Origin: Cereibacter sphaeroides 2.4.1
Lineage (GTDB): Bacteria; Pseudomonadota; Alphaproteobacteria; Rhodobacterales; Rhodobacteraceae
Length of the DNA: 32,000 nt
Reading direction: 5' to 3'
Assembly (NCBI RefSeq): GCF_000012905.2
Contig: NC_007493.2
Location: 3,060,001 to 3,092,000, forward strand
Positions 7,780 through 28,993 of this stretch are shown here, in pieces. The position numbers and the translations under genes were made by a program. Under the pieces are notes generated by a model. It did not search any database. It was not told where the DNA came from and was given only the letters and a program-made list of their open reading frames with translations. Within the stretch, counting starts at the first letter, position 1; each line of letters starts with the position of its first letter.

Positions 7780-7798
7780 TTTGACGCTCGTTTGACGC
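7780..7798 (+). promoter_or_regulatory. Tandem direct repeat TTTGACGC-N3-TTTGACGC (11-bp period) upstream of the wHTH-TPR regulator gene
   Basis: Read directly as cTTTGACGCtcgTTTGACGCacc, 56-74 nt upstream of ATG 7854. Each copy contains a -35-like TTGACG. Confidence 0.5.
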
Positions 7799-7853
7799 AC
7801 CGATCACGCAGGGGGGCTAAGGGTCGGGCGGGAAGTCGTCAAGGAGGGTCGCG

Positions 7854-9788
7854 ATGTTGTGCGGGACAGCATCCGCGGTCGGCGCCGCAAGGGTGCAGCC
7901 GTTCATCATCGTAAATGCTTTACCCGGCGTCGCGGCTCGGTCACTGTGGCGTGAGCGGGCGGTTGCCGGGGCAGCGTCCGAGGAACCAGCGGCTGGCCGA
8001 ATGACGGGAGCGTCTCCTGACCTGCGGATGTATCTGTTCGGGCCCTTCACCCTGCTGGGACCCGACGGAGAGGAACTGACTCCGAAATCCCGCAAATCGC
8101 GCGCCATCCTCGCCATGCTGGCGGTGGCGCCTCGGGGCTCGCGCTCGCGCGTCTGGCTGCGCGACAAGCTCTGGAGCGACCGGGGCGAGGATCAGGCCTC
8201 GGCGAGCCTCCGGCAGGCGCTTCTGGATATCCGCAAGTCGCTGGGGCCCCGCGCCGCGCATGTGCTGACGGCGGACAAGAACACGGTCTCGCTGGATCTG
8301 GCGGCGGTGGCGGTGGATGCGCTGGAACTCGCCGCTCGCGAGCGGCGGGGCGAGGACGGCAGCACGGAGCATTTCCTCGAAGGGATCGACGTGCGGGATC
8401 CCGAATTCGAGGACTGGCTGGCGCTGGAGCGCCAGAGTTGGTTCGCGCGCCTCGAAGAGGCCGGCTTCGAGGCCGATCTCGCGCCGCGCCCGGCGCCCTC
8501 GGAGGCGCGGCGCGAGGCGTCGCAGGCGGTGCCGCGCACCTCGCCGCCGGCTGCGCCGCAGCCGCCGCAATCGCTGCTGCGGCAGGAGGACGAGGGCGGC
8601 TGGCGCGTGGCTATGATGCCGCCCGTCATCCTCGGCGGCGATCCGGCGGCGGCGGTGCTGCAGGCCGATGTGCAGCGCGCGCTGCGCCGCGCGCTCGTCG
8701 AGACGGGCGATCTGCGGCTGGTCGACATGGCGCCCGTGGCGCTGGGTGATCTGGGGGCCGGCCTTGCGGGGGGCGGGCTGCTCGCGCGTCTGCCCGAACA
8801 GGTGCATCTGAGCGTGCAGGTCCGGGTTCTGGCGGATCACAGCTACCTCCGCGTCGGGATCGTGCTGCAGAACCCGGCCGACAATGCGCTGGTCTGGTCC
8901 GACGAGGTGATCGTGCCGCGGCGCGAGTCGATCGGCGAGGCGAGCTTTGCCATGCCGCTGATCGTGCGCGCGACCGAAGAGGCGACGCTGCATTTCCTGC
9001 GCCGCCACGGCACCGAGGGGGCCGAGGCCGAGGGGCGGATCGCGGCCGCCGTGGCCTCGATGTTCCGGCTGGCGCGGGGCGATCTCGACCGGTCCGAGGA
9101 GATCCTGCGCCGGCATCTCGACCGGACCCCGACCGCGCAGGGCTATGCCTGGCTGGCCTTCCTCAACACCTTCCGTGTGGGCCAGCGCTTCAATCCCGCC
9201 GACGCGCCGCTGATCGAGGAGACGCAGCATCTCGCACGCCGCGCGCTGGGGCTCGAGCCCAACAATGCGCTGGTCTCGGCGCTGGTGGGCCACATCCACT
9301 CCTACCTCTTCGGCGAGTTCGACTATGCCGCGGCGCTCTTCGAGCAGTCCCTGCGGGTCAATCCGGCGCAGACGCTGGCCTGGGATCTCTATGCCATGCT
9401 CCATGCCTATGCCGGCCAGCCGAAGCGGGCGCTCGCCATGGCGCGCTGGGCGCGTCATCTGGGCGCCTTCAGCCCGCATCGCTACTATTTCGAGACCACC
9501 CGCGCGATCACCGGAAACTTCTCGGGCGATCATCAGACGGCGATCGACGCCGGACAGTCGGCGCTGGCCGAGCGGCCGGACTTCAACTCGCTGCTGCGGG
9601 TGCTGGTCTCGTCGAACGCCCATCTCGACCGGCCCGAGGAAGCGCGGCTGTTCCTCGAGCGGCTGTTGCAGGTCGAGCCGAACTTCTCGGTCGCCTCGCT
9701 GCGGGACGCGGGCTATCCGGGCCTCGATACCGAGGGCGGGCGGCATTTTCTGGATGGTCTCGTGAAGGCGGGCGTGCGCAAGCACTGA
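7854..9788 (+). CDS. Winged-helix (OmpR/SARP-BTAD-like) DNA-binding regulator with central domain and C-terminal TPR repeats
   Basis: MYLFGPFTLLGPDGEELTPKSRKSRAILAMLA...WLRDKLWSDRGEDQASASLRQALLDIRKSL (wHTH), then FLEGIDVRDPEFEDWLALERQSWF (BTAD-like), then a TPR-like C-terminus. The start is ambiguous. ATG 7854 has a strong AAGGAGG Shine-Dalgarno sequence 6 nt upstream, but codons 1-49 are unusually rich in third-position A/T. ATG 8001 is the alternative. Confidence 0.75.
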   Translation: MLCGTASAVGAARVQPFIIVNALPGVAARSLWRERAVAGAASEEPAAGRMTGASPDLRMYLFGPFTLLGPDGEELTPKSRKSRAILAMLAVAPRGSRSRVWLRDKLWSDRGEDQASASLRQALLDIRKSLGPRAAHVLTADKNTVSLDLAAVAVDALELAARERRGEDGSTEHFLEGIDVRDPEFEDWLALERQSWFARLEEAGFEADLAPRPAPSEARREASQAVPRTSPPAAPQPPQSLLRQEDEGGWRVAMMPPVILGGDPAAAVLQADVQRALRRALVETGDLRLVDMAPVALGDLGAGLAGGGLLARLPEQVHLSVQVRVLADHSYLRVGIVLQNPADNALVWSDEVIVPRRESIGEASFAMPLIVRATEEATLHFLRRHGTEGAEAEGRIAAAVASMFRLARGDLDRSEEILRRHLDRTPTAQGYAWLAFLNTFRVGQRFNPADAPLIEETQHLARRALGLEPNNALVSALVGHIHSYLFGEFDYAAALFEQSLRVNPAQTLAWDLYAMLHAYAGQPKRALAMARWARHLGAFSPHRYYFETTRAITGNFSGDHQTAIDAGQSALAERPDFNSLLRVLVSSNAHLDRPEEARLFLERLLQVEPNFSVASLRDAGYPGLDTEGGRHFLDGLVKAGVRKH

Positions 9789-9809: not shown

Positions 9810-10754
9810 ATGAGGATGTGTGAACCCCAACCGGTGGGCGTGGCGGCGTTTCTGAACCGCTATCCGTTCGAGGTGAATGCCGAGCGCGTGCTGCCCGCAG
9901 GCGGCGGCGCGGGCCAGTCGGTCGCGAGCGACGGCTCGGCCGAGGGCAACACGGCGGCCGGGGTCGCGGCCCTGTCGGCCCTCAACAAGTCGGTGCAGAA
10001 CAAGTCGTCTCTCAACAAGAACAAGAACAAGAACAAGAATAAAAACAAGAACAAGAACAAGGTGGCAGGTGCCGGCGGCGGCGCGGCGGCCCTGTCCAGC
10101 CTGATGCCGGCGCTGGAGTTGCGGCGCCTGCATCAGTTGCCGCAGGCCGATCCGTTCACCGTCGCCTCCCGCTTCGTCTGGGAGTGCCTCGACATCTGCC
10201 TGCCACCGGGGCCTGATTTCACCCGTCTCGAGACCGCGGTGATGCTGGCCATGCAGGCCCGCGATGCCGAGCGGATGCGGCGGCTTCCCGACATCCAGGC
10301 CCAGGCTGCCTTCTCGGTCGACGAGTTCCTGCGCCCGCTCGGGATCGAGGGGCTCGCCGGGTACGAGGCGACCGAGGGGCTGTTCCTGAACATCCTGCAG
10401 GCCACGGAATATGTGGGGCTGCTCTACAAGGCACGGATCGACCGCGACCGGCCGAACGTCGTCGAGCCGCGGCTGCGTCCGCTGCTCGCGGTGCCCGCCC
10501 ACCAGAGCTATCCCTCGAACCATTCGTTCCAGGGCCATTCCATCGTCTTCGCCTTCAACGCGATCCTGCCCGAGCATCCCGCGACCGAGGAGTTGCAGCG
10601 CATCGCGCAGAACGTGGCGGAGAACCGGGAATGGGCGGGGCTGCATTTCCCTTCGGACACGCTGGCCGGAAAGGAGCTCGCGCGGCGGTTTGCGCCCTAC
10701 CTGCGCGATGCGTTCGGCGCGGCCTTCCTTGCGGCGCAGGCGGAGTGGCACTGA
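9810..10754 (+). CDS. Soluble PAP2 / vanadium-haloperoxidase-fold protein with a disordered N-terminal Ala/Gly and (Asn-Lys)8 tract
   Basis: All three PAP2 signature motifs are visible: KARIDRDRP (K-x6-RP), YPSNHS (variant of PSGH) and NREWAGLHFPSD (R-x5-H-x3-D). I see no signal peptide or TM helix. It lies 21 nt after the regulator gene. GGAGGA at 9805-9810 favours the second ATG (9816) as the real start. Confidence 0.7.
   Translation: MRMCEPQPVGVAAFLNRYPFEVNAERVLPAGGGAGQSVASDGSAEGNTAAGVAALSALNKSVQNKSSLNKNKNKNKNKNKNKNKVAGAGGGAAALSSLMPALELRRLHQLPQADPFTVASRFVWECLDICLPPGPDFTRLETAVMLAMQARDAERMRRLPDIQAQAAFSVDEFLRPLGIEGLAGYEATEGLFLNILQATEYVGLLYKARIDRDRPNVVEPRLRPLLAVPAHQSYPSNHSFQGHSIVFAFNAILPEHPATEELQRIAQNVAENREWAGLHFPSDTLAGKELARRFAPYLRDAFGAAFLAAQAEWH
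10014..10061 (+). repeat. Hexanucleotide microsatellite (AACAAG)4-AATAAA-(AACAAG)3 encoding (Asn-Lys)8
   Basis: Read directly from the sequence. It is a 48-bp AT-rich tract inside the PAP2-like CDS, preceded by degenerate copies (CTCAACAAGTCG, CAGAACAAGTCG). Confidence 0.95.
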
Positions 10755-10755
10755 C

Positions 10756-12426
10756 ATGGACACGCAGACGATGACTCACGCGGCTCCGGCGCGGGCGGTG
10801 GCCCCCCGCTACTACTGGCTCTGGCATCTGGCGGCGCTGAAGGTGCTGGATGCGGATTTCGGCGCGGCGCCGGAGCCGGTGCCGCCCCTGTCGCAGAGCG
10901 CCCTGCGCGAGGTGCCCGTGCCGCAGATCAGAAGCACGGTCTGGGACCGCATCCCCGGCGGCACCGCCACCGTGGCGCTCATCGATACGGGCGTGAGCCG
11001 CACCCACCCGAACCTCGCGAGCCGGGTGGATGCAGAGCGGTCGATCGATCTGACCACGCACCGCTACGGGGCGCAATCCGTGCCGGTGGCCGATGCGACC
11101 CCCTGGACCCGCGAGGGACGGCGCGCCTTCTTCGCCAACCTCGACCTCGAGGGGCTTCAGCCGCTTCAGCTCTCCTCGCACGAGCAGGACTTTCTCGAGG
11201 CGATGGTCGAGGATTTGCGCCAGTCGCAGGGCGTGACGCGGCCGCTGAGCGATGGAGACGAGAGCTTTTCTGCCCACGGCACCGCCTGCGCGGGTTTGAT
11301 CGTGGGCGAGCCTGCGGCCGTGGCGCCGGGCACCGGCGCGCTTCTGCCTCCCGCCGAGGCCTTCCCGGACGGCGAGCCCAATCCGAACGGCAATCTCCTG
11401 CCCTATTTCGGGGTCGATCCCTTCTCGCGCCTGCTCTCGATCCGCACCTCGTTCGAGAGCGATCCCTATCAGTTCATCACGGCTTTCCTCTATGCCTGGC
11501 AGCACAAGGTGGATGCAATCGTGCTGCCGCGCGGCCTGCCCGATCCGGTGCGCGCGCCGCTCCAGCCGAAGGAGGATCTGAAGGCCGATCTCGAAACCTG
11601 GAAGAGCCGCGATGCGGCGGATCTCTTCCAGCGGCTGCAGATGCTCGGCAACGGGTCGGGGGATCCGGATGCGGCGCAGGCGGGATTCCAGCCCGACCGG
11701 CCCTGGAAGATCCTCTCGCACCTGATCCAGGCGATCTCGCGCCACATCCCCATCGTCTGCGCCGCCGGAAACGACGGCGAGAGCCAGCTCATCTACCCGG
11801 CCAGCCTCGCCGACGACTCGAACGGCATCGTCTCGGTCGGGGCGGTCACGGCAGAAGGGCTGCGCGCCGGCTATTCGAACTACGGCGAGGGTCTGACGCT
11901 GGTGGCGCCCTCGGACGATTACCCGGTCTACAACCGTCACCAGATGCGGCTGAACAGGTTCGATCCGCTGATCGGGCTGCACGATTATGCGGTGGGCGCG
12001 GGGCGCGAGCATGTCTACTGCCCGCTCGAACTGGTCACGACCGATCTGCCCGGCGTCTTCGGCTATGACAGCGGGGCGCAGCCCTGGGCTCAGGTCATGC
12101 CCGCGCAGGGCAACCCCGGTCTCGGCGGCGGCTACTACACCGGCTTCGGCGGCACGTCGGGTGCCTCGGCGCTGGTGGGCGGGCTTCTGGCGCTGGCCCA
12201 GCGGGCGCGCCGGGCCGCCGGTAAGGCGCCGCTCGGCGGGCACGCGCTGAAGCGTCTGCTCCGGCGGGCCTCCTCCACCGCCGCGGTCGTCGCGCCGGGC
12301 TACCGGCCGCTGACGCCCGATACGATGAACGCGGACGACGAGACCCTCCTCGGGCCGGCGGCCTTCTTCGGAGCAGGTCTGCCCGACGCACGGCTGCTGG
12401 TCGAGGAGGCCGTGGCCCATCCGTGA
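10756..12426 (+). CDS. S8 (subtilisin-like) serine peptidase, 556 aa, no signal peptide
   Basis: Complete triad plus oxyanion Asn: VALIDTGV (Asp), SAHGTACAGLIVG (His), VCAAGNDG (Asn), GFGGTSGASALVGG (Ser). The inner ATG at 10756 is one nt after the PAP2-like stop. The N-terminus MDTQTMTHAAPARAVAPRYYW is not signal-like. Confidence 0.85.
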   Translation: MDTQTMTHAAPARAVAPRYYWLWHLAALKVLDADFGAAPEPVPPLSQSALREVPVPQIRSTVWDRIPGGTATVALIDTGVSRTHPNLASRVDAERSIDLTTHRYGAQSVPVADATPWTREGRRAFFANLDLEGLQPLQLSSHEQDFLEAMVEDLRQSQGVTRPLSDGDESFSAHGTACAGLIVGEPAAVAPGTGALLPPAEAFPDGEPNPNGNLLPYFGVDPFSRLLSIRTSFESDPYQFITAFLYAWQHKVDAIVLPRGLPDPVRAPLQPKEDLKADLETWKSRDAADLFQRLQMLGNGSGDPDAAQAGFQPDRPWKILSHLIQAISRHIPIVCAAGNDGESQLIYPASLADDSNGIVSVGAVTAEGLRAGYSNYGEGLTLVAPSDDYPVYNRHQMRLNRFDPLIGLHDYAVGAGREHVYCPLELVTTDLPGVFGYDSGAQPWAQVMPAQGNPGLGGGYYTGFGGTSGASALVGGLLALAQRARRAAGKAPLGGHALKRLLRRASSTAAVVAPGYRPLTPDTMNADDETLLGPAAFFGAGLPDARLLVEEAVAHP

Positions 12427-12475: not shown

Positions 12476-12494
12476 TTTGACGGATGTTTGACGG
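12476..12494 (+). promoter_or_regulatory. Second copy of the tandem direct repeat, TTTGACGG-N3-TTTGACGG (11-bp period), upstream of the L12-CTD-like repeat gene
   Basis: Read directly as aTTTGACGGatgTTTGACGGgtc, 63-81 nt upstream of ATG 12557. It has the same orientation, period and core as 7780-7798. Confidence 0.5.
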
Positions 12495-12556
12495 GTCCGT
12501 TACGGTGGAGTCACACCGTTGGAGGCAAGCTGACCGGAGAAAACAGGGAGCAAGCC

Positions 12557-13450
12557 ATGTCTGCCACAGTGGCATCGTCACATGAGGTGCGTGTAACCCT
12601 CGTCTCCGCACCAGCGCGCCCCGGCCTCGCCGCGGGCGTGATATCGGATCACCTCGGCCTCGACCGGCCGCAGGTCACCCGGCTCCTGACCCGCGAGGGC
12701 GGGGTGCTGGCCGAGGCGGTGGCGCGGCCGGTGGCCGAGCGTCTGGTGCCGCTCCTTCTGGCGCTGGGCGTGACGGTCAGGCTCGATCCCTCGGGCAGCG
12801 CCGAGGCGGCCCTGCCGGTTGACGTGGCGGTTCAGCCGGTGCGGATGCCCTCCGAGGGAACGGTGGCGCGGCTCGCGGCACAACTCTTCTACGACGGGGA
12901 TGCTCTGCGCACGGCGCTCGCCCGGCCGCAGGGCCTTGTGCTCCGGATGGGGCGCCGCGAGGCCGAGACGCTGAGGCGGAGCTTCCGGCGCGACGGCAGT
13001 GTGCGGATCGCGCTGTCGAACGTGGCTGGCGCGCGGTTCGACCTGTTTCTCAAGCCCGGATGCAGGATGAGCGCGGGGCTCGAGACGCTCCTGCGCAGGC
13101 TCGGGCTCAGGCCGTGTCTGTTCAGCGGTGCGGTGGGCGCGGGCCTGAGCGCCCGAACCGCGGCTCTGGTGGTGCGCCAGCACGGCGGTCTGGTCGATGC
13201 CGTCAATCGGGATTTCCAGCGCTTCGACCTGTTTCTGGCAGGCGGACGCGAACTCTCGCGCCCGGACCTCGCCGATTTCCTCGCCACCCGGGCCCGGGTC
13301 GAGCGGACGCGCCTGCTCTCGCCCGCCGAGGCCCGCAGCATCCGGCTCGAGGCGGGGCTGAGCCGCGCGGCGGCGCGCCGCTTCCATGAGGATTACGCCG
13401 CCATCGGCCTCGACACCCGGATCGAACTGGTCGCGCTCGCGGAGGGCTGA
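12557..13450 (+). CDS. Hypothetical protein, 297 aa, made of four tandem ~65-75 aa repeats resembling the ribosomal L7/L12 C-terminal domain (ClpS-like fold)
   Basis: Inner ATG at 12557 with an AGGGAG Shine-Dalgarno sequence 6 nt upstream. The repeats begin VRVTLVS, VDVAVQP, RFDLFLKPG and RFDLFLAGG (compare E. coli L12 EFDVILKAAG). They end in G(L/V)S-x3-A-x9-G-x4-(L/V)-like helix-strand units (compare L12 [23 protein letters not shown]). High GC3 is consistent with coding. Confidence 0.6.
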   Translation: MSATVASSHEVRVTLVSAPARPGLAAGVISDHLGLDRPQVTRLLTREGGVLAEAVARPVAERLVPLLLALGVTVRLDPSGSAEAALPVDVAVQPVRMPSEGTVARLAAQLFYDGDALRTALARPQGLVLRMGRREAETLRRSFRRDGSVRIALSNVAGARFDLFLKPGCRMSAGLETLLRRLGLRPCLFSGAVGAGLSARTAALVVRQHGGLVDAVNRDFQRFDLFLAGGRELSRPDLADFLATRARVERTRLLSPAEARSIRLEAGLSRAAARRFHEDYAAIGLDTRIELVALAEG

Positions 13451-13460
13451 AGTCCGGGAA

Positions 13461-13475
13461 TTAAGGCTCCCTTCA
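13461..13475. promoter_or_regulatory. CtrA-box-like motif TTAA-N7-TTCA upstream of motB
   Basis: TTAAggctcccTTCA, 50-64 nt upstream of ATG 13525. It is one of only four TTAA tetranucleotides I could find in the window. Confidence 0.4.
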
Positions 13476-13524
13476 CCCGCCGCCCTTAGGGTGGCTCCCG
13501 GGTGTGTATGAACGGGGTGCCGGG

Positions 13525-14361
13525 ATGGCAGGGCAGTCAAATGCCGCGCCAGTCGTCATCAAGCGGAAGAAGGTCGTGCAGGGGGGCGGGCATCATGGCG
13601 GTGCCTGGAAGGTCGCCTATGCCGATTTCGTGACGGCCATGATGGCCTTCTTCATGCTGATGTGGCTGCTGAACGCGACGACGGAGAAACAGCGCAAGGG
13701 GCTCGCGGACTATTTCAATCCGACGATTCCGATGAACCGCGTGTCGGGCGGGGGCGAAGGGGCCTTCGGCGGCAACTCGGTCTTCCACGACCAGACCATG
13801 ACCCAGACCGGCACCGGGGCGGCCAACGACCGCGCGACGGCCGAGCTGAAGGCAAGCGGCGAGATGGGTCAGGAGGGGGCGGACGCCGCCGAGCAGAAGC
13901 AGCTCGAGGAGGTCGAGAAAATGCTCAAGGCCCGTTCGGGCGAGAGCATGACCATGCAGCGGCTCCTCCGCCATGTTGTGACCCGGATCACCGACGAGGG
14001 GCTGGTCATCGAGATCTTCGATCTGCCGGACGTGCCCCTCTTCTTCGGCGACACCGACCAGCCCGAGGCCGTGCTGCCGCAGATCGCCCGCCTCCTGGCC
14101 GAGATCCTGCCGATCACCACCAACAGGATCGCCGTGAACGGCCATATGCGCAGCTACCCGATCACGTTGATCCGCAATCCGGTCTGGGACATCTCGGCCG
14201 CCCGGGCGCAACGGATGCGCGGCCTGCTCGAATCGGAGGGCCTGCCGGGCGAGCGGATGCAGCGCGTCTCGGGCTTCGCCGACCGCAAGATCGTCACGCC
14301 GGATCCGATGGCGGTGCGAAACAACAGACTCGAGGTAATTCTCCTGCGCCGCGACCGCTGA
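13525..14361 (+). CDS. motB: Flagellar stator protein MotB
   Basis: GGAWKVAYADFVTAMMAFFMLMWLL (TM helix with the conserved Asp) and an OmpA-like C-terminus (ISAARAQRMRGLLESEGLP...NNRLEVILL). The start could also be GTG 13504. Confidence 0.85.
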   Translation: MAGQSNAAPVVIKRKKVVQGGGHHGGAWKVAYADFVTAMMAFFMLMWLLNATTEKQRKGLADYFNPTIPMNRVSGGGEGAFGGNSVFHDQTMTQTGTGAANDRATAELKASGEMGQEGADAAEQKQLEEVEKMLKARSGESMTMQRLLRHVVTRITDEGLVIEIFDLPDVPLFFGDTDQPEAVLPQIARLLAEILPITTNRIAVNGHMRSYPITLIRNPVWDISAARAQRMRGLLESEGLPGERMQRVSGFADRKIVTPDPMAVRNNRLEVILLRRDR

Positions 14362-14383: not shown

Positions 14384-14398
14384 TTAGGCGGGTGTTAA
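14384..14398. promoter_or_regulatory. CtrA-box-like motif TTAG-N7-TTAA upstream of flgE
   Basis: TTAGgcgggtgTTAA, 58-72 nt upstream of ATG 14456. It sits in the loop of a GC-rich inverted repeat (14376-14382 / 14399-14405). Confidence 0.4.
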
Positions 14399-18313: not shown

Positions 18314-19404
18314 TGCTCATTCGTCTTCTCCTCCTGGTGATCTGCCTGGCGGGTCCGGGCGTTGCGGAGGAAATCCGCATCAAGGACCTCGTACGATTCG
18401 ACGGTGTCCGGGGTAACGACCTTTTGGGCTACGGCCTTGTCGTCGGCCTCAACGGCACGGGCGACGGCTTACGCAACGCGCCCTTCACCGAAGACATCAT
18501 GTCCAATCTGCTCGAGCGGCTGGGCGTGAACGTGACAGGCGAGCAGTATCGGCCGAAAAACGTGGCGGCAGTGTTCGTTACGGCCACGCTGCCCCCCTTT
18601 GCCCGGGCCGGGGCACAGATCGATGTGACCGTTTCGGCGATGGGCGATGCGAAGAGCCTGCTGGGCGGGACGTTGGTGATGACGCCATTGAACGGCGCGG
18701 ATGGTCAGATATATGCGGTGGCACAAGGAACAATCATTGCGGGCGGAGTCTCGGCCGAGGGGCAGGCCGCGCGCGTGGTTCAGGGGGTGCCCACGGCAGG
18801 CACCATTCCTGAAGGCGCCCGAGTGGAACGTGAGGTCGAATTCGAGTTTGCGCGCCTCGACAGGGTTCGTCTGGCGCTGCGATCACCCGACTTCACCACC
18901 GCCGGACGTATCGAGGATCGGATCAATCGCGAGCTTGGCCGGGGCGTGGCAACCATGCTCGATGCAGGGACGGTCTCCCTCGACCTCGGAAGGCTGGGCC
19001 CGCCGGCCCGGGTCATGGGCCGGATCGAGAATCTCGAGGTCGTACCGGAGACGGTGGCGCGGGTTGTGGTGGACCAGCGATCCGGCACGATCGTGATGGG
19101 CGAGGACGTCCGGATCAGCCGGGTCGCGGTGGCGCAAGGCGGCCTGACGCTTCGCGTGGAAGAACAGCCGATGGTGGTTCAGCCCAACCCCTTCAGCCGG
19201 GGGGAGACGGTGGTCGTTCCGCGCACGACAGCCTCGATCCAGCAAAGACCCGGGACCGGCCTCGCCGAAATACCGGCAGAGACCTCGCTTTCACGTGTCG
19301 TGGCGGGCCTCAACGCGCTGGGCGTGGCGCCCAACGACATGATCGATATCCTCAAGAGCATCCATGCCGCCGGGGCGCTTCATGCAGAATTCATCGTGAG
19401 ATGA
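18313..19404 (+). CDS. flgI: Flagellar P-ring protein FlgI
   Basis: Signal peptide MLIRLLLLVICLAGPGVA, then IRIKDLVRFDGVRGNDLLGYGLVVGLNGTGD and C-terminal LNALGVAPNDMIDILKSIHAAGALHAEFIV. The ATG overlaps the flgL stop (TGATG). Confidence 0.95.
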   Translation: MLIRLLLLVICLAGPGVAEEIRIKDLVRFDGVRGNDLLGYGLVVGLNGTGDGLRNAPFTEDIMSNLLERLGVNVTGEQYRPKNVAAVFVTATLPPFARAGAQIDVTVSAMGDAKSLLGGTLVMTPLNGADGQIYAVAQGTIIAGGVSAEGQAARVVQGVPTAGTIPEGARVEREVEFEFARLDRVRLALRSPDFTTAGRIEDRINRELGRGVATMLDAGTVSLDLGRLGPPARVMGRIENLEVVPETVARVVVDQRSGTIVMGEDVRISRVAVAQGGLTLRVEEQPMVVQPNPFSRGETVVVPRTTASIQQRPGTGLAEIPAETSLSRVVAGLNALGVAPNDMIDILKSIHAAGALHAEFIVR

Positions 19405-22229
19405 GGGCGCCTGCCGACCAATCGGGCCACCCCGTCCAGCAGGGCCTCATCGCCGAACGGCTTGGCGAGCACGGCGACCCGGGGCCGGAACTCCTCATCC
19501 GGCACCCGGCTGTCGCCCGTGGCGAAGAGGATCGGCAGATCGGGGTGGAGCGCGCGGGCCGCCCGGGCCAGGTCCACGCCGCTCATGTCGGGCAGGCCCA
19601 GATCGACCAGCAGCAGATCGGCCGCACCGTGCTGCAGTACGCTCAGGGCGGCCTCGCCGGAGCCGGCCTGCGAGACCCGGCACCCCGCCTCCGTCAGACC
19701 TTCGACAAGGTTCATCCGGATGATGACATCATCCTCGCAGACGAGGACATGGATATTCTTCAAACCGTCTTCCTCGGGAGGGCCGCTCGCACCGCTGACA
19801 AGAACCTCCCGGATCTTCCGGGCCAGAGCTTCCTGCGTATAGGGCTTGCTGAGCAGATGCACGCCGCTGTCGAGCCGTCCGCCGTGAACGATGGAGTTCT
19901 GCGTGTAGCCCGAGGTGAAGAGCACCGGCAGTCCCGGGCGCAAGCCGCGCGTCTTCTCCGCGAGCTGACGGCTCGTCAACTTGCCCGGCATGACCACGTC
20001 GGTGAAGAGAAGGTCGATCCGTGCACCGCTTTCCACGATCGTGAGCGCGCGGTCCGCGTCCTTGGCCTGCAGAACCGAATAGCCGAGATCCTGCAGCAGG
20101 CCCGCCGCGGTGGATCGCACCTGCTCGTCATCCTCCACCAGCAGGATGGTCTCGGTTCCTCCCGTCATGGGGCCGGTGGCGAGGGGTCGCATTGCGTCCT
20201 CGGCCTCCAGCGACCGGGGAAGATAGATCTTGATGGAGGTTCCGTTGCCGAGCTCGCTGTAGATCTTGACGTGGCCGCCCGACTGTTTGACGAACCCGTA
20301 GACCATGGACATGCCGAGTCCTGTGCCGCGCCCTTCCGCCTTGGTGGTGAAGAACGGCTCGAACACGCGCTCGATCACCTCCGGGGACATGCCGCAGCCC
20401 GTATCGGTCACGGCAAGCATCACATACTGGCCCGGCTCGAGGTCGGGATGGCCGCGCGTATAGATGTCGTCCAGGAAGGAGTTCCCGATCTCGATGGTGA
20501 GACGCCCGCGCCCCTCCATCGCGTCCCGGGCATTGATTGCGAGATTGAGGATCGCGGTCTCGACGTTGGCGGGGTCGACGCAGGTGTTCCAGAGCCCGCC
20601 AGCCACCAGAGTCTCGACCTCGACCCCCTCGCCCACGGCGCTCCGGACGATGTGGTCCGCGTCGCGCAGCAGACGTCCCAGGTTGATGACCCGAGGCGCA
20701 AGGGGCTGCCTGCGTCCGAAGGCCAGCAGCTGTGACGCGAGCGTCGCCCCGCGCTCGACCGCGCGAAGAGCCTGGTCGAGACGCGGGCGCGCGGCGTGAT
20801 CCTCGTCAAGAGCGCGAAGAGAGAGCTGGATACTGCCCGTGATCGTCTGCAGGAGATTGTTGAAATCATGCGCGATTCCGCCCGCCAGATTTCCGATCGC
20901 CTCCATCTTCTGGCTCTGGCGCAACGTATCGCTCATTTCTTCGAGCTCACGGTTGCGCTGCTGCACCCGCTCCTCCAGCGCAGCATTCAGACCCGCGATG
21001 GCTTCCTCGGCAACCTTGCGATCCTCGATATCCGTGTTGGTCCCGATCCAGCGCAGGATCCGGCCCTGATCGTCGCGGATCGGCAGGGCGCGCGACAGAT
21101 GCCAGCGATCGGCGCGGTCGTGGCGCCGGATCCGCAGCTCGCGCTCGAAGGCGGTTCCCTGGGCCAGCGATTGCACCCAGGCCGCTTCCGCCTGCGGCCT
21201 GTCTTCCGGCCGGACGATCGCCATGGGCGGCAGGCCGATCAGGTCGGCTTCGGTGCGTCCGCAATAGTCGAGGAGCCGGTCGTTCAGCCAGTCGAGCCGC
21301 CCTTCGGGCGTGGCCGTCCAGACGTGGTTGGGCATGGTCTGGGCCATGGTCCGGAACCGCTCGCGCGTCTCGATCACCTCGGCCTCGGCAATCTTCTGGC
21401 GCGTCACGTCATGTCCCTCGACGAAGACGCCGCGCACCTGTCCGTCGGGTCCCCTCAGCGGGCACATGATGAAATCGACGAAACTGCGCTCGATCTCGGG
21501 GCCGCGCCGGAGCAGCACGGGCGCCGCCAGCCGGGTGAATGCGAGCCCCGTCAGGAAGACCTCGTCGAGGAGTTCGAAGAAGCCCTGGCCGTCGAGTTCG
21601 GGCAGCGCCTCGCGGACCGTGCGGTTCAGCAGGTCTCGGCGGCCGACGAGCTGGTGGTAGGCCTGGTTCACGATGCGGAAGATATGGTCGCGCCCGTCGA
21701 GCACGGCCATGAAGCTCGGCGCCTGGTCGATCGCGCTGCGAAAGAAGTCGACCGCGCTGCCGAGTTCGAGATTCTGACGCGTGACCGCTTCGGCCCGCTG
21801 GAGCATCCTGGCCTGATCGTTCGGTTGGGAAGAGGTCCGATCCTCACGATACAGCGCCGTGATGTCGTTGGTGTTCTGAAGGATGAACTCGACGTGGCCC
21901 TCGGCATCCTTGATGGGCGTATTGGTCGCGCTCCAGAACCGCTCCTCCATCCGGCCGTCCTGATTGCGGATCGGATAGGGAATCAGCGGCAAATGGTCCG
22001 GTCGGCCCTGCTCGACCGCGCGGCGCAAGGAGGCGCGCAGCATCTGGTCCGGGATGGACTCGGCCTCTGCGGGGAAGACGTCGAACATGCGGCGCCCGAC
22101 AACCTCGTCGCGCGCCAGACCCGTGGCGCGCAGGTAGGCGGCATTGGCCCAGATCATCGTGAGATCCCGGTCAAGAAGGACGTAGGGCGATGGGTCTTCG
22201 GCAAATATCTTGTCGAGGGCGACGAGCAT
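19380..22229 (-). CDS. Hybrid sensor histidine kinase: three PAS domains, HisKA, HATPase and two receiver domains; 949 aa
   Basis: H-box AGGIAHDFNNLLQTI, N-box LNLAINARDAM, G-boxes DTGCGM and GTGLGMSMV. REC1 is ILLVEDDEQV...DLLFTDVVMPG and REC2 is VLVCEDDVII...DLLLVDLGLPDMSG. An AAGGAG Shine-Dalgarno sequence precedes the ATG at 22229. Confidence 0.9.
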   Translation of the reverse strand: MLVALDKIFAEDPSPYVLLDRDLTMIWANAAYLRATGLARDEVVGRRMFDVFPAEAESIPDQMLRASLRRAVEQGRPDHLPLIPYPIRNQDGRMEERFWSATNTPIKDAEGHVEFILQNTNDITALYREDRTSSQPNDQARMLQRAEAVTRQNLELGSAVDFFRSAIDQAPSFMAVLDGRDHIFRIVNQAYHQLVGRRDLLNRTVREALPELDGQGFFELLDEVFLTGLAFTRLAAPVLLRRGPEIERSFVDFIMCPLRGPDGQVRGVFVEGHDVTRQKIAEAEVIETRERFRTMAQTMPNHVWTATPEGRLDWLNDRLLDYCGRTEADLIGLPPMAIVRPEDRPQAEAAWVQSLAQGTAFERELRIRRHDRADRWHLSRALPIRDDQGRILRWIGTNTDIEDRKVAEEAIAGLNAALEERVQQRNRELEEMSDTLRQSQKMEAIGNLAGGIAHDFNNLLQTITGSIQLSLRALDEDHAARPRLDQALRAVERGATLASQLLAFGRRQPLAPRVINLGRLLRDADHIVRSAVGEGVEVETLVAGGLWNTCVDPANVETAILNLAINARDAMEGRGRLTIEIGNSFLDDIYTRGHPDLEPGQYVMLAVTDTGCGMSPEVIERVFEPFFTTKAEGRGTGLGMSMVYGFVKQSGGHVKIYSELGNGTSIKIYLPRSLEAEDAMRPLATGPMTGGTETILLVEDDEQVRSTAAGLLQDLGYSVLQAKDADRALTIVESGARIDLLFTDVVMPGKLTSRQLAEKTRGLRPGLPVLFTSGYTQNSIVHGGRLDSGVHLLSKPYTQEALARKIREVLVSGASGPPEEDGLKNIHVLVCEDDVIIRMNLVEGLTEAGCRVSQAGSGEAALSVLQHGAADLLLVDLGLPDMSGVDLARAARALHPDLPILFATGDSRVPDEEFRPRVAVLAKPFGDEALLDGVARLVGRRPHLTMNSA

Positions 22230-22349
22230 CGTTCGGCTCCTTCAGAATTGGCCGCAGGATGACGGGGTTGCGCGGCAGCGGCAAGGGCAGACATGCGGCA
22301 ACAGGACGCACTCTCCCCTCGGCGCGGGAGGCCGTGCTATGGTCGGCGA

Positions 22350-23375
22350 ATGAAGCGCCCTCTTCTCGATCCGGAAGAAACGCAGCCCTCGCTGTACGAT
22401 CCGACGCCCGTCGATGAGGACCTGTGGTTTGCGGGGCCCGACCTCGAGGACGATGTCTTCGCGTCTTCATTGCCGCGGGCCGAGCGAACGGATCTCCTGC
22501 GCGTGGTGGAGTGGCGGCGGGCCGAGGCGGCGCTCGCCGCCGATCTCGCGCGGGCCGCGCAGCGGCTCGGCGCCTTCGAAGAACGGTTGCGGCGCACGCC
22601 GGCCGGTGTGCGCGAGCGTCTCGCGGTGCTCGAGGCGTCCGAACTCAGCTGGTGGGCCGGCGACCGCGTGACGCCCGACCGGCTGTCGCTCTGGATGTCG
22701 CTCCGCCTGAGCGGGGCTCAGGAGGACAGTCTTGCCCTGACACGGGCCGGCTGGGCTGCGCGGCGGCTCGTCAGCGGGCCGGGCCCGGAGGCGGGACTCG
22801 CCTCCTTCCTCGGCCGGGGCGAGACGACCGAGCGTATGATGGACTGGGCCGAGATCGAGGAGGCATCGGCCGGAATGCATCCGATCAGCCGGGCGGCGAT
22901 GGGCTTCCATGGCTGGTCGCAGATCGCTGGCGGGCCCGGCAGCGCCCGGATCGAGGCCGCCGTCGTTGCGGCCCGGGCGGCCGGGACCAGTGGGCAATCG
23001 GCGGCCTTCCTGCCGCTCGCCTCGGGTGGCAGCACCGCGCTTCGGCCCGGCGGCTCGCCCGAAGAGCGCCTCCGGCGCTGGTATGCCGGGGCGGAGCGGG
23101 CCACGCTTGCGCTTCTGCGGGACCTCGACCGGCTGGAGGACTGGCGCGGGCGGGCGCTGGGCGACATTGCCAGCCTGTCCGGCCGCACGGCACCGCGGCT
23201 CATCCAGGCGCTCTGCCGCTGGCCGCTCCTGTCGGTACCGGTCGCCGAAGCGGAGACCGGCGCGTCGCGCGCGGCGGTCCAGCGCAATCTGGAGAGGCTG
23301 GCCGATCTCGGCCTGATCCGGGAGGTCACCGGGCAGGAGCGGTTCCGGCTCTGGACCGCGGCCGTTCAGAAGTAG
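22350..23375 (+). CDS. DUF1612-like protein with C-terminal winged-helix (RHE_PE00001-family-like), 341 aa
   Basis: The inner ATG MKRPLLDPEETQPSLYDP is preferred over the track start. The C-terminus PLLSVPVAEAETGASRAAVQRNLERLADLGLIREVTGQERFRLW is a Fic-associated-type wHTH. The family assignment is from memory of the DUF1612 pattern, not from a search. Confidence 0.55.
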   Translation: MKRPLLDPEETQPSLYDPTPVDEDLWFAGPDLEDDVFASSLPRAERTDLLRVVEWRRAEAALAADLARAAQRLGAFEERLRRTPAGVRERLAVLEASELSWWAGDRVTPDRLSLWMSLRLSGAQEDSLALTRAGWAARRLVSGPGPEAGLASFLGRGETTERMMDWAEIEEASAGMHPISRAAMGFHGWSQIAGGPGSARIEAAVVAARAAGTSGQSAAFLPLASGGSTALRPGGSPEERLRRWYAGAERATLALLRDLDRLEDWRGRALGDIASLSGRTAPRLIQALCRWPLLSVPVAEAETGASRAAVQRNLERLADLGLIREVTGQERFRLWTAAVQK

Positions 23376-24348: not shown

Positions 24349-24931
24349 GCCGGACCTCCTGTTGCGTGAGATCGAAATAGCTGCGCACGGCGGCCGCGAT
24401 GTCTGTCACCGCTCGGTCGAGGTCGACCTGCGTCTCGGTGACGCCCAGGCGGATCGTTGCCTGCCCCTCGTCGAGGCTCGGTTCGTCGTGGATCACGAGG
24501 GGAAGGGCCACGGCACCGTCGAGCAGCCGCTCGAGGCAGGCGCGGGCGGACGGGTGGACGAGAAGCGCGACGGGTGCCTCGCTCATTCCATCGGCCAGGG
24601 GCATCAGCGTCTCGAGCACCAGGGGCGCCAGCATCTGCCGTGCCATGTCGGGCAGGATGCGGCCGACGAGCGCCTCCATCAGCGGCTCGATTCCGCGCAG
24701 GACATGCATGCGCGCCTCGCGGAAGGTGAAGCCCAGAGCCTGCAGGTTCCGGGCGAGATCGGCCTGCATCCGGGCCTCCTCCTCGGAGCGGGCCTTCACC
24801 GCATCTTCCCATCCGGCGCGGTAGCCCTCTTCGTAAGAGGCCTGCCGGCCCTCCTCCACGGCCACAGCGTCGGTCACGACGATGGCGGGCTCCGGTGCCG
24901 TGACCTCGAAGACCTCGAGCCGGAGCGCCAT
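24341..24931 (-). CDS. fliH: Flagellar assembly protein FliH-like, 196 aa
   Basis: Position between fliF and fliN, with a YEEGYRAGWEDA motif and a FliH-like C-terminal domain. The ATG at 24931 overlaps the fliF stop. Confidence 0.65.
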   Translation of the reverse strand: MALRLEVFEVTAPEPAIVVTDAVAVEEGRQASYEEGYRAGWEDAVKARSEEEARMQADLARNLQALGFTFREARMHVLRGIEPLMEALVGRILPDMARQMLAPLVLETLMPLADGMSEAPVALLVHPSARACLERLLDGAVALPLVIHDEPSLDEGQATIRLGVTETQVDLDRAVTDIAAAVRSYFDLTQQEVRHG

Positions 24932-26559
24932 CACGGCGCCTCCCGCTGCGGTTCCATCCAGCCGCGCAGGATCTCGACAGACTCGGCCTGGCGCTCCTCG
25001 ATCAGACGGCGGAGCCGCGCGACCGGATCCGCCTCCTCGTCGAGGTCGAGAGGCGCGGAGGACACCATCGGGAAGTCCGGCAGATCGCCGCTATCGTCGA
25101 TCTCGCCCGTCAGCGCCGGTTCGCCGCCCTCGTAACCCGGGAGCGCCAGAGGCTGCGGGGCAGCCGGCGGGCGCGGCGGCGCCGTCAGGACCGGGCGGAC
25201 GACGAAGAGACCGAGGATCAGGGCCACCAGAGCGAGCACGCCGATCTGGATCAGGCTCATCAGGTCGAAGGCGCCGAGGCGGCTGAGGAAGCCGGTCTCG
25301 GCCAGGGTTCCCGCTTCGGGCGGCGTCTCGAAGGCCAGCGAGCGCAAGGTCAGCCTGTCGCCACGCGATTCATCGAGCCCCACCGCTGAGCCGACCAGTT
25401 CGCGCAGGACGGCAAGCTCCTCCTCGGGGCGCGGTTCCCAGCCCACGGTGCCATCGTCCGCAACCGTCTTGATCCCATCGACCAGAACGGCAACCGTGAG
25501 CCGCCGGATGGCACCCGGCTGGCGCATGAGTTCGCGCTGGGTCTGGGAGACCTCGAAATTGACCATCTCGCGAGTTTCGCTGGTGCTCGACTTGCCGCCC
25601 GTGCCTCCCTTCGCGTCGCCTTCCGGCAGGTTCGACGCCACCGTCACGTCGGGCGAGGGTTCGGTCGAGTTGCTGGATTTCTCCTGGGTTTCCGACGAGA
25701 TCGGCACGCGGCCCTTGGGGTCGAAGCTCTTCTCCACGATCGACTCGCGCGCGGTCTCGACATCGACGCTGACTTCGACCACAGCCCGGCCCGGCCCGAC
25801 CCGCGCCTCGAGCAGCCGCTCGACGTTGCTCCGGAGTTCGGCGGCGCGGCTCTCGCCCGCGGCGGTGGCGCCGTCCTTCTCGTCCCCGGACCGGATCAGG
25901 CCCATCACGCTGTCGATCACCGACACGTCTTCGGGCTGCAGCCCGGCCACGGCCGAGGCCACCAGATGTTTGAAGGCCCGCGCCTGATCCGCGGTCACCG
26001 CGCCGCCCGATGTGGTCACCGTGACGCTCGCCGTCGGCCGCTGCTCCCGCCGGAACGGCTGGGCCGCCGGCTGCGCGATATGCACCCGTGCCGCCTTGAC
26101 CTGCGGGCTGGCGAGGATCGTCCGGGCAAGTTCGCCCTCCTTCGCGCGCAGATAGGCCGCGTCGAACATCTGCGACGTGGTGCCGAAGCCCGAGAGTCCG
26201 TCGAGGAGTTCGTAACCCGCGGCGCCCGTGGCGGGCAGCCCCTCGCCCGCGAGTTTCATGCGGATCTCGTCCCGGCGGGCCGCCTCGACATAGACCGAAT
26301 CGCCCCTCACCTCGTAGGCCGCGCCCTGCGCCTCGAGCGCGGTCACGACTTCGCCCGCCGCCGGTCCCTGCAGACCGGCATAGAGCAGCGCCATCGGCGG
26401 CCGGCCGGCGAGCTGCGACAGACCGAGCACGGCCAGGAACATGGCAACCGTCGCGCCCACGACGACGGCCCTGCGGCGTCCGTCGAGATCGTTCCAGATT
26501 GAGATGAGGTTCTGCACTTCGGTCTCCGACACGGGCTTCTGCCTTGCCCGACCATCCAT
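24931..26559 (-). CDS. fliF: Flagellar MS-ring protein FliF
   Basis: N-terminal TM segment (VVVGATVAMFLAVLGL), then LYAGLQGPAAGEVVTALEAQGAAYEV...IRMKLAGEGLP. It also has the RLTVAVLVDG motif, a second TM segment and an acidic C-terminus. Confidence 0.95.
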   Translation of the reverse strand: MDGRARQKPVSETEVQNLISIWNDLDGRRRAVVVGATVAMFLAVLGLSQLAGRPPMALLYAGLQGPAAGEVVTALEAQGAAYEVRGDSVYVEAARRDEIRMKLAGEGLPATGAAGYELLDGLSGFGTTSQMFDAAYLRAKEGELARTILASPQVKAARVHIAQPAAQPFRREQRPTASVTVTTSGGAVTADQARAFKHLVASAVAGLQPEDVSVIDSVMGLIRSGDEKDGATAAGESRAAELRSNVERLLEARVGPGRAVVEVSVDVETARESIVEKSFDPKGRVPISSETQEKSSNSTEPSPDVTVASNLPEGDAKGGTGGKSSTSETREMVNFEVSQTQRELMRQPGAIRRLTVAVLVDGIKTVADDGTVGWEPRPEEELAVLRELVGSAVGLDESRGDRLTLRSLAFETPPEAGTLAETGFLSRLGAFDLMSLIQIGVLALVALILGLFVVRPVLTAPPRPPAAPQPLALPGYEGGEPALTGEIDDSGDLPDFPMVSSAPLDLDEEADPVARLRRLIEERQAESVEILRGWMEPQREAP

Positions 26560-26571
26560 GACGGATGTGGC

Positions 26572-26586
26572 TTAACAATCGGTTAG
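26572..26586. promoter_or_regulatory. CtrA-box-like motif TTAA-N7-TTAG in the fliF / fliL divergent intergenic region
   Basis: cTTAACaatcggTTAGg, 43-57 nt upstream of the fliL ATG (26629). It is followed 13 nt later by a TATAGA -10-like hexamer (26600-26605). Confidence 0.45.
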
Positions 26587-28123: not shown

Positions 28124-28993
28124 ATGTTCGGGATCGTCGGCATCCTCGTGATTTTCGTGATGGTGTTCGGCGGCTACATGCTTGCCGGTGGCAAGCTGGG
28201 CGTGATCCTGAAGGCGTTGCCGTTCGAGATGATCATGATCGGAGGAGCGGCCGTGGGCTCGTTCCTGCTCGCGAACGACCTCGCCACGGTCAAGCACACG
28301 CTCAAGGATTTGGGCAAGGTCTTCAAGGGACCGAAGTGGAAGCCGGGCGACTACCGTGACCTGCTCTGCCTGCTCTTCGAACTCGTGCGGATCGCGAAGG
28401 TCAATCCTGTCGGGCTCGAGGAGCATATCGAGAATCCCGAGGAGTCGTCCGTCTTCTCGCGCTATCCCAAGATCCAGCACGACCATGACGCGATCGAGCT
28501 CATCTGCGACACGCTGCGGGCCGCCTCAATGAACTACGACGATCCGAACCAGGTCGAAGAGGTTCTGGACAAGCGGGTCGAGAAGGCGCAGCACCACGCG
28601 TTGCATTCCAGCCACGCGCTCCAGTCGATGGCCGACGCGCTTCCGGCGCTCGGCATCGTGGCGGCGGTGCTGGGCGTCATCAAGACGATGGGCTCGATCG
28701 ACCAGCCGCCGGAGATTCTGGGCAAGATGATCGGCGGCGCGCTCGTGGGCACCTTTCTGGGCGTGTTTCTCGCCTACGGCATCGTCGGCCCCTTCGCCAC
28801 GCGGGTGAAGGCCGTGGTCGAGGAGGACGGCCATTTCTACAATCTGATCCGCGAGGTGCTGATCGCGAACCTCCACAATCATCCGGCCAACATGTGCATC
28901 GAGGTCGGACGGCAGAACACGCCCCATCACGTCCGCCCGAGTTTCACCGATCTCGAAGAAGCCATCAGGGCCCTGAAGCAGGAGGCCGCATGA
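28124..28993 (+). CDS. motA: Flagellar stator protein MotA
   Basis: MFGIVGILVIFVMVFGGYMLAGGKLGVI...ALPALGIVAAVLGVIKTMGS...GGALVGTFLGVFLAYGIVGP shows the canonical MotA TM3/TM4 region. An AGGAG Shine-Dalgarno sequence lies 7 nt upstream. Confidence 0.95.
   Translation: MFGIVGILVIFVMVFGGYMLAGGKLGVILKALPFEMIMIGGAAVGSFLLANDLATVKHTLKDLGKVFKGPKWKPGDYRDLLCLLFELVRIAKVNPVGLEEHIENPEESSVFSRYPKIQHDHDAIELICDTLRAASMNYDDPNQVEEVLDKRVEKAQHHALHSSHALQSMADALPALGIVAAVLGVIKTMGSIDQPPEILGKMIGGALVGTFLGVFLAYGIVGPFATRVKAVVEEDGHFYNLIREVLIANLHNHPANMCIEVGRQNTPHHVRPSFTDLEEAIRALKQEAA

Follow-up and report, generated by a model that had tools for sequence, protein, structure and literature searches.

The stretch of DNA analyzed here, a 32,000-nucleotide window of the Cereibacter sphaeroides 2.4.1 genome (contig NC_007493.2), contains on its plus strand a gene at 12557..13450 that encodes a 297-residue protein composed of four tandem domains resembling the C-terminal domain (CTD) of ribosomal protein bL12, as revealed by its open reading frame (ORF), translation, homologs and AlphaFold2 (AF2) model. 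This gene, hereafter the L12-like gene, sits beside motB2 at the edge of a flagellar gene cluster, and its ATG is preceded by a GGGAG ribosome-binding site at 12546-12550, 7 nt upstream. A word-index search retrieved 32 homologs with identities down to about 30%, the nearest being the copy of C. johrii (94% identity). When 1.84 billion cluster representatives were searched exhaustively with a profile, 457 matched at E<=1e-3, 315 of them at E<=1e-10. The reading frame, which the original prediction had been prepared to see dismissed as non-coding, is thus conserved in relatives, and the gene is real. Antisense ORFs over the gene (e.g. 12578-13540, minus strand) are taken to be high-GC artefacts, as both the conservation and the structural model favor the plus frame.

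The family is unannotated. Wherever the word-index matches carried a source name, it was "hypothetical protein" throughout, and no precomputed Pfam domains were found among them; a second word-index search, using a mixed alpha- and gammaproteobacterial alignment, added neither names nor domain fusions. The protein was assigned to no family by Pfam, NCBIfam, PADLOC or PHROGs, its near-matches to HTH_IclR and Snu114 being rejected as below threshold, and a whole-protein single-sequence search of the PDB sequences returned nothing useful. The literature searched contained no L12-like flagellar protein and makes no mention of this gene. No signal peptide or transmembrane segment was found in the protein, whose first β-strand begins at residue 10 of the AF2 model, and the N-termini are not hydrophobic across the family alignment. 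The protein is basic, with an isoelectric point (pI) of 11.2, compared to a family median of 9.2 (range 4.8-11.7).

The full-length AF2 model, built on a 33-sequence alignment, has a mean predicted local distance difference test score (pLDDT) of 89.8 and a predicted template modelling score (pTM) of 0.80, and consists of four consecutive units of 60-73 residues each, in agreement with the division proposed in the original prediction. Unit 1 (12578..12796, residues 8-80; 10-78 in the AF2 model), unit 2 (12809..13027, residues 85-157; AF2 87-155) and unit 4 (13217..13435, residues 221-293; AF2 223-291) each adopt a β-α-α-β-α-β topology, and unit 3 (13031..13213, residues 159-219; AF2 161-217) is shortened and lacks the second helix. 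An alignment of 120 family members was divided into unit profiles, and their pairwise comparison by hhalign linked unit 1 to unit 2 in register (probability 93.6%, E 2e-7) and to unit 4 (89.6%, E 2e-6); unit 2 was further linked to unit 3 (71.5%) and to unit 4 (56%), and unit 3 to unit 4 (46%). The comparison of units 1 and 3 was not significant. In the family alignment, the conservation peaks at the junction of units 3 and 4 and in unit 4, the most conserved of the four. Unit 3 opens with ARFDLFL and has a near-invariant Cys187 and G191-A192, and unit 4 is characterized by the motifs NRDFQRFDLFL, which runs across the junction, ADFLATR and F-x-A-D-Y-A-A-I-G-L, with invariant columns at R222, D224, L225, F241, R245, L268, F276, Y280 and G284. 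Of the smaller motifs put forward earlier, the HLGL of unit 1 is present, whereas the "G-L-S-x3-A" ending proposed for every unit fits units 3 and 4 well but units 1 and 2 loosely.

The shared FDLFL peptide of units 3 and 4 is encoded by an exact 14-nt repeat, TTCGACCTGTTTCT, at 13037..13050 (in ARFDLFL) and 13223..13236 (in QRFDLFL), both on the plus strand. As had been noticed from the letters, the two copies are in frame and 186 nt apart; they are the only two occurrences in the window and form the longest exact repeat of the ORF. An exact repeat of at least 14 nt arose in 2% of 1000 codon shuffles of the ORF, so that, taken by itself, the repeat in the DNA is barely out of the ordinary. 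The repeat reflects a conserved peptide motif written with the same codons.

Structural similarity search supported the proposed bL12-CTD/ClpS fold. Unit 1, modeled alone with a pLDDT of 92.9 (AF2), was compared with the PDB using Foldseek, and its 46 best matches are all bL12 CTDs or ClpS. The best match is Mycobacterium tuberculosis bL12 (PDB 8yeq), with template modelling (TM) scores of 0.81/0.82 and a root-mean-square deviation of 1.8 Å, and E. coli bL12 (PDB 1rqs) gave TM scores of 0.77/0.76. The ClpS structures of E. coli, Caulobacter, Mycolicibacterium and Arabidopsis gave TM scores of 0.63-0.73. The meaningful Foldseek matches of the full model in the PDB are solely ClpS and the bL12 CTD, with probabilities of 0.96-1.0 and target-normalized TM scores of 0.44-0.81.

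At the sequence level, the direct family test and the profile test gave different answers. Neither the Pfam model of the bL12 CTD (PF00542) nor that of ClpS (PF02617) matched the protein at E<=1; by contrast, a unit-1 profile of 45 sequences searched against all PDB sequences placed bL12 CTDs in its 11 best positions, matching 1ctf at E 2.1e-4 over the full domain (profile positions 2-69). A unit-1 profile of 119 sequences matched the E. coli bL12 CTD at E 5e-4. Comparison of unit 1 with a single bL12 sequence by hhalign was weak (38.7%), and no unit profile exceeded a probability of 0.3% when compared with E. coli ClpS. The profiles of units 2-4 had no direct match to bL12; these units are assigned to the bL12-like fold because of their internal profile links via unit 1 and the structural model. 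The core positions common to unit 1 and bL12 are G77, L78, A83, P91, L94, A103, L106, L110, G114 and V117. Altogether, the protein descends from the same domain family as the bL12 CTD, and a ClpS-like adaptor role would have the predicted fold as its sole basis.

The family departs from bL12 at the parts that serve translation. We take the factor-binding surface of bL12 to lie on helices 4 and 5 and to comprise K65, V66, I69, K70, R73, L80 and E82; at these columns, unit 1 mostly has A, S/G, A, P/G, A, P/R and E/Q, respectively, the basic positions K65, K70 and R73 thus being replaced mostly by A, P and A. Unit 2 is not basic at these three helix-4 positions either. In addition, the N-terminal dimerization and L10-binding domain of bL12 and its hinge are absent, as the four units fill the whole chain, and nothing in the protein aligned with bL12 residues 1-50 in the unit-1 profile search of the PDB. 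Lacking the stalk-anchoring domain and having lost the factor-binding residues, the L12-like protein is not ribosomal.

The strongest functional clue for the L12-like gene is its synteny with motB. The gene is followed in the window by motB2 (13504..14361, plus strand; MotB_plug 5.9e-20, NF006548 3.2e-52), which encodes the flagellar stator protein, and then by flgE2, flgK2, flgL2 and flgI2; farther downstream are a hybrid histidine kinase gene, fliP2, fliF2, motA2 and the motK region. This is the Fla2 cluster of C. sphaeroides (PMC6180460), which corresponds to the "fla1-type" cluster of Rhodobacterales (PMC12363192). A scan of one genome per species recovered at least 44 loci from Cereibacter, Rhodobacter, Pseudorhodobacter, Gemmobacter, Paragemmobacter, Tabrizicola, Cypionkella, Fertoeibacter and Szabonella. 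In 40 of the 42 informative loci, motB-flgE lies directly 3' of the L12-like gene; the others among the 44 are two that end at a contig edge, a partial match in a metagenome-assembled genome labelled Exiguobacterium, and one locus of metagenome-assembled Rhodobacterales (L024/L054). The adjacency persists even where the L12-like protein is only 30% identical, and in three distant homologs the order motB-flgE-flgK-flgL-flgI directly follows the gene with unrelated genes upstream. In 40 loci compared, the upstream 2 kb present nine unrelated contexts. As the upstream side varies and the motB junction hardly ever does, breakpoints have accumulated on one side only.

The hybrid kinase between flgI2 and fliP2 (19380-22229, minus strand) has 949 residues with multiple PAS domains, HisKA, HATPase_c and a receiver; two plus-strand ORFs overlapping it (19401-20735 and 20796-22262) have no family matches and are probably artefacts. 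Near it, a plus-strand gene at 22293-23375 encodes a 360-residue protein with a C-terminal HTH_13/MarR-like domain.

The L12-like gene appears to have a promoter of its own. Four direct repeats in an 11-bp phase occupy 12476..12519 on the plus strand (TTTGACGGatg TTTGACGGgtc CGTTACGGtgg AGTCACACcgt), ending ~40 bp before the ATG. A second site of three repeats lies at 7780..7812 on the plus strand (TTTGACGCtcg TTTGACGCacc GATCACGCagg), upstream of a gene for a SARP-like regulator. The repeat unit is TTTGACGN plus 3 nt, present in three to four copies, and these two sites are the only ones in the window at <=2 mismatches. In 29 of the 44 loci, a tandem TTTGACG-N4-TTTGACG (<=3 mismatches) precedes the L12-like gene, typically ~80-95 bp before the ATG; it is missing from one alphaproteobacterial clade (12 loci) that has a different upstream context. 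Locus L030 has the same pair of sites as the window, at 2054 upstream of the regulator gene and at 3842 upstream of the L12-like gene. When the window and seven loci were scanned with two mismatches allowed, one variant site only (L001) fell outside these promoters. Direct repeats in an 11-bp phase are the typical site geometry for winged-helix activators of the OmpR/SARP type. The element looks like such an activator site, one that defines a small regulon, and the SARP-like regulator, by this geometry and its own N-terminal sequence, is the obvious candidate to bind it.

A different signal stands before motB2. A CtrA-type box, TTAAGGCTCCCTTCA, lies at 13461..13475 on the plus strand, past the stop codon of the L12-like gene and before motB2, and TTAA-N7-TT(C/G)A is found at this position in about three quarters of the related loci, most related genomes having the conserved form TTAA-N7-TTCA. 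A CtrA site has been reported for the motB2 regulatory region (PMC6180460), and the box marks a separate promoter for motB2. No intrinsic terminator was predicted between the two genes, so that read-through into motB2 is possible. Three CtrA-type boxes (TTAA-N7-TTAA, one mismatch) occur in the window, compared to a chance expectation of 0.09: the one before motB2, one at 14384-14398 before flgE2, and one at 26572-26586 beside the 5' end of fliF2 (24931-26559, minus strand).

Three further plus-strand genes lead up to the L12-like gene in the window. The SARP-like regulator (8001..9788) is laid out as an N-terminal winged helix of the OmpR/PhoB type, which is a weak match (Trans_reg_C, E 0.052, below threshold), and TPR repeats (TPR_19, 6.8e-6). 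The second gene of its operon (9810..10754) encodes a PAP2-superfamily protein (PAP2, 3.8e-6, just under the gathering score), and the third gene (10753..12426), the upstream neighbor of the L12-like gene, encodes a protease of the subtilase (S8) type in which no signal peptide is evident. The likely start ATG of the S8 gene at 10753 overlaps the PAP2-like stop codon (10754), so that translation of the two is probably coupled. This trio lies directly upstream of the L12-like gene in 9 of the 40 loci, in several genera. At the same loci, the regulator is 73-88% identical across genera, compared to 55-90% for MotB. The PAP2-like protein contains eight Asn-Lys dipeptides in a row (NKNKNKNKNKNKNKNK, window positions about 10014-10061), encoded by a short tandem DNA repeat; this is unusual in a GC-rich genome, and the repeat could vary in length.

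More distant relatives are found in Halopseudomonas, marine metagenomes and other Gammaproteobacteria, where proteins of 360-400 residues carry a fifth L12-like unit. In four independent contexts, the five-unit gene is the first of an operon of about ten genes, its stop codon overlapping the start of the next gene. The operon (L050, 8001-16709; also L052 and L058) encodes a TPR protein, an OmpA-domain protein of 574-598 residues without a signal peptide, two PASTA-domain proteins and five proteins without a recognizable domain; OmpA, TPR and PASTA are the only domains recognized by the domain searches, matches to LmuB/JetC and to tape-measure proteins being rejected as coiled-coil composition. 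No phased promoter repeats are present at the gammaproteobacterial loci. MotB also bears an OmpA-like domain, and the pairing of the family with an OmpA/MotB-type protein in two bacterial classes suggests that the link to motB is not accidental.

From this arrangement we infer, tentatively, that the L12-like protein is a cytoplasmic interaction scaffold that acts on the Fla2 flagellum or its stator and is expressed from a CtrA-independent promoter, a reading that we favor at somewhat less than even confidence. The protein would be soluble and most likely cytoplasmic, and its rigid array of four bL12-CTD-family domains could serve as a scaffold for protein-protein interactions. Because the gene is locked beside motB at the edge of the cluster, it may serve the Fla2 (Rhodobacterales "fla1-type") flagellum as an accessory factor or a modulator, a plausible site being the cytoplasmic face of the motor, at the N-terminus of MotA2/MotB2, at FliG2, or at the export or assembly machinery. 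Its own promoter with the phased repeats would probably be driven by the upstream SARP-like regulator and not by CtrA, and would thereby subject the motB end of the cluster to a second input that does not depend on CtrA. There is precedent for such a role: MotK and MotE are lineage-specific proteins of the C. sphaeroides Fla2 cluster with motility phenotypes (PMC10954123), as are CP1-4 of the Rhodobacterales fla1-type cluster (PMC12363192). As essential lineage-specific proteins keep turning up in this cluster, a flagellar role for the L12-like gene is plausible. The gene is itself neither motK, whose product has ~650 residues and is encoded beside motA2 (window 28894-30948 region), nor one of CP1-4, CP1 being encoded with fliC-flaF-flbT.

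Several observations weigh against a flagellar scaffold. All recovered loci come from one group of Paracoccaceae genera, Roseobacteraceae not having been searched directly, and a comparison of five Rhodobacterales has the conserved cluster start at motB without listing the L12-like gene (PMC12363192); the gene is therefore not a universal part of this flagellum. The published cluster maps likewise begin at motB2 and do not include it (PMC12363192, PMC6180460), and the literature searched describes no mutant of the gene. In the metagenome-assembled Rhodobacterales locus L024/L054 (8001-8927), the gene does not adjoin motB and keeps its phased promoter repeats; a UvrD-like helicase gene lies downstream on the opposite strand. 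The synteny could partly be a matter of vertical inheritance of a region in which the promoter of motB lies right against the gene's 3' end. The L12-like protein also evolves faster than its neighbors: it is 94% identical to that of C. johrii, compared to 95-99% for the neighboring proteins (97-99% for all except the PAP2 protein), and 47-67% identical to those of other Cereibacter species, compared to 78-90% for MotB. Within one mismatch, the window shows no CtrA box, a typical feature of Fla2 genes, in front of the L12-like gene, and such boxes precede it in only six related loci. Finally, the gammaproteobacterial partner system is not flagellar and its OmpA-domain protein has no signal peptide, which weakens the common denominator with motB.

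Alternatively, the protein could be a partner, an adaptor or a substrate within the regulator/PAP2/S8 module, and its adjacency to motB an inherited accident of gene order. The TTTGACG phased repeats shared by the regulator operon and the L12-like gene, and by nothing else in the window, fit this well, as do the same pairing of sites in L030, the recurrence of the module directly upstream in several genera, the use of a ClpS-like fold by a protease adaptor, and an S8 protein that is apparently a cytoplasmic subtilase. However, the module is not adjacent in 31 of the 40 loci, whereas motB almost always is, and the units carry no ClpS sequence signal; moreover, ClpS adapts AAA+ unfoldases, not subtilases. 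An S8 gene and a regulator gene near the motB-less copy (L054) were considered as support for a protease link and rejected, not being orthologous to those of the window. We therefore regard this alternative as unlikely, and the earlier suggestion of an adaptor for the adjacent S8 protease, a neighbor in less than a quarter of the loci, is not supported.

It is also conceivable, if improbable, that the units form a modular DNA- or RNA-binding array, with one unit per 11-bp-phased repeat at the promoter of their own gene. Four protein units would then face up to four DNA repeats, the protein is basic (pI 11.2, family median 9.2), and in alpha- as well as gammaproteobacteria the gene stands first, beside or at the head of an operon that might be under its control. 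A resemblance of the helix pair of the bL12 CTD to a helix-turn-helix has long been noted, and the weak HTH_IclR match (E 0.025, below threshold) falls on the helix pair of unit 1. Against this, a conventional candidate binder is at hand in the OmpR/SARP-type regulator, whose own gene is preceded by the same repeats; the pI within the family goes down to 4.8; and the repeats are absent from the gammaproteobacterial loci and from the alphaproteobacterial clade of 12 loci. To our knowledge, no bL12-CTD-like domain binds DNA specifically. The further proposal that the protein is a free decoy or scaffold for translational GTPases (IF2, EF-Tu, EF-G, RF3) has the homology to the bL12 CTD in its favor, but it is very improbable, because the positions shared with bL12 are confined to the structural core, the basic factor-binding residues and the stalk-anchoring domain are missing, and the gene context is flagellar or envelope-related and never translational. 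The remaining probability falls to functions outside these readings.

The bL12 CTD is usually regarded as a ribosome-only module, with ClpS as its one repurposed relative. In the present family, which spans two proteobacterial classes, duplication of a bL12-type domain has given non-ribosomal proteins of four or five units; new here are the flagellar synteny and the promoter architecture, and the family, so far unannotated, is a novel arrangement of a known domain. The finding places an L12-like gene, fixed beside a stator gene, in a well-studied organism that is still yielding essential motor proteins such as MotK, MotE and CP1-4 and for which strains expressing Fla2, antibodies and assays are available. 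If motility is affected by the gene, a cytoplasmic, CtrA-independent component or control point would be added to the Fla2 flagellum. If motility is unaffected, the gene would represent a clean case of domain co-option with an unexplained tie to OmpA-domain proteins, and if the units do bind nucleic acid, a ribosomal stalk domain would have been turned into a modular regulator at the entry of the motB operon.

Compared to the known systems, the L12-like protein is closest to the bL12 CTD (PF00542; PDB 1ctf and 8yeq), with which it shares the β-α-α-β-α-β fold, the sequence homology of unit 1 and the core residues; however, bL12 has a single CTD copy in addition to an N-terminal domain, a hinge and a ribosomal context, whereas the L12-like protein has four copies and a flagellar context. 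ClpS (PF02617), the N-degron adaptor of ClpAP, belongs to the same fold class, and both are small adaptor-type modules, but ClpS consists of one domain preceded by an N-terminal extension and has ClpA as its partner, whereas the L12-like protein has four units and no clpA-like gene nearby. The promoter element corresponds to SARP/OmpR-type sites of 11-bp tandem repeats in having 7-8 conserved and 3-4 variable bases repeated three to four times in phase; the candidate regulator differs from an established member in that its Trans_reg_C match stays below threshold. Among flagellar proteins, MotK and MotE act on the stator protein MotB2 (PMC10954123). They are periplasmic, whereas the L12-like protein lacks a signal peptide, and it is not homologous to MotK, MotE or CP1-4. 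Like the L12-like gene, however, all of these are taxon-restricted, lack recognizable domains and are tied by position to the same flagellar cluster.

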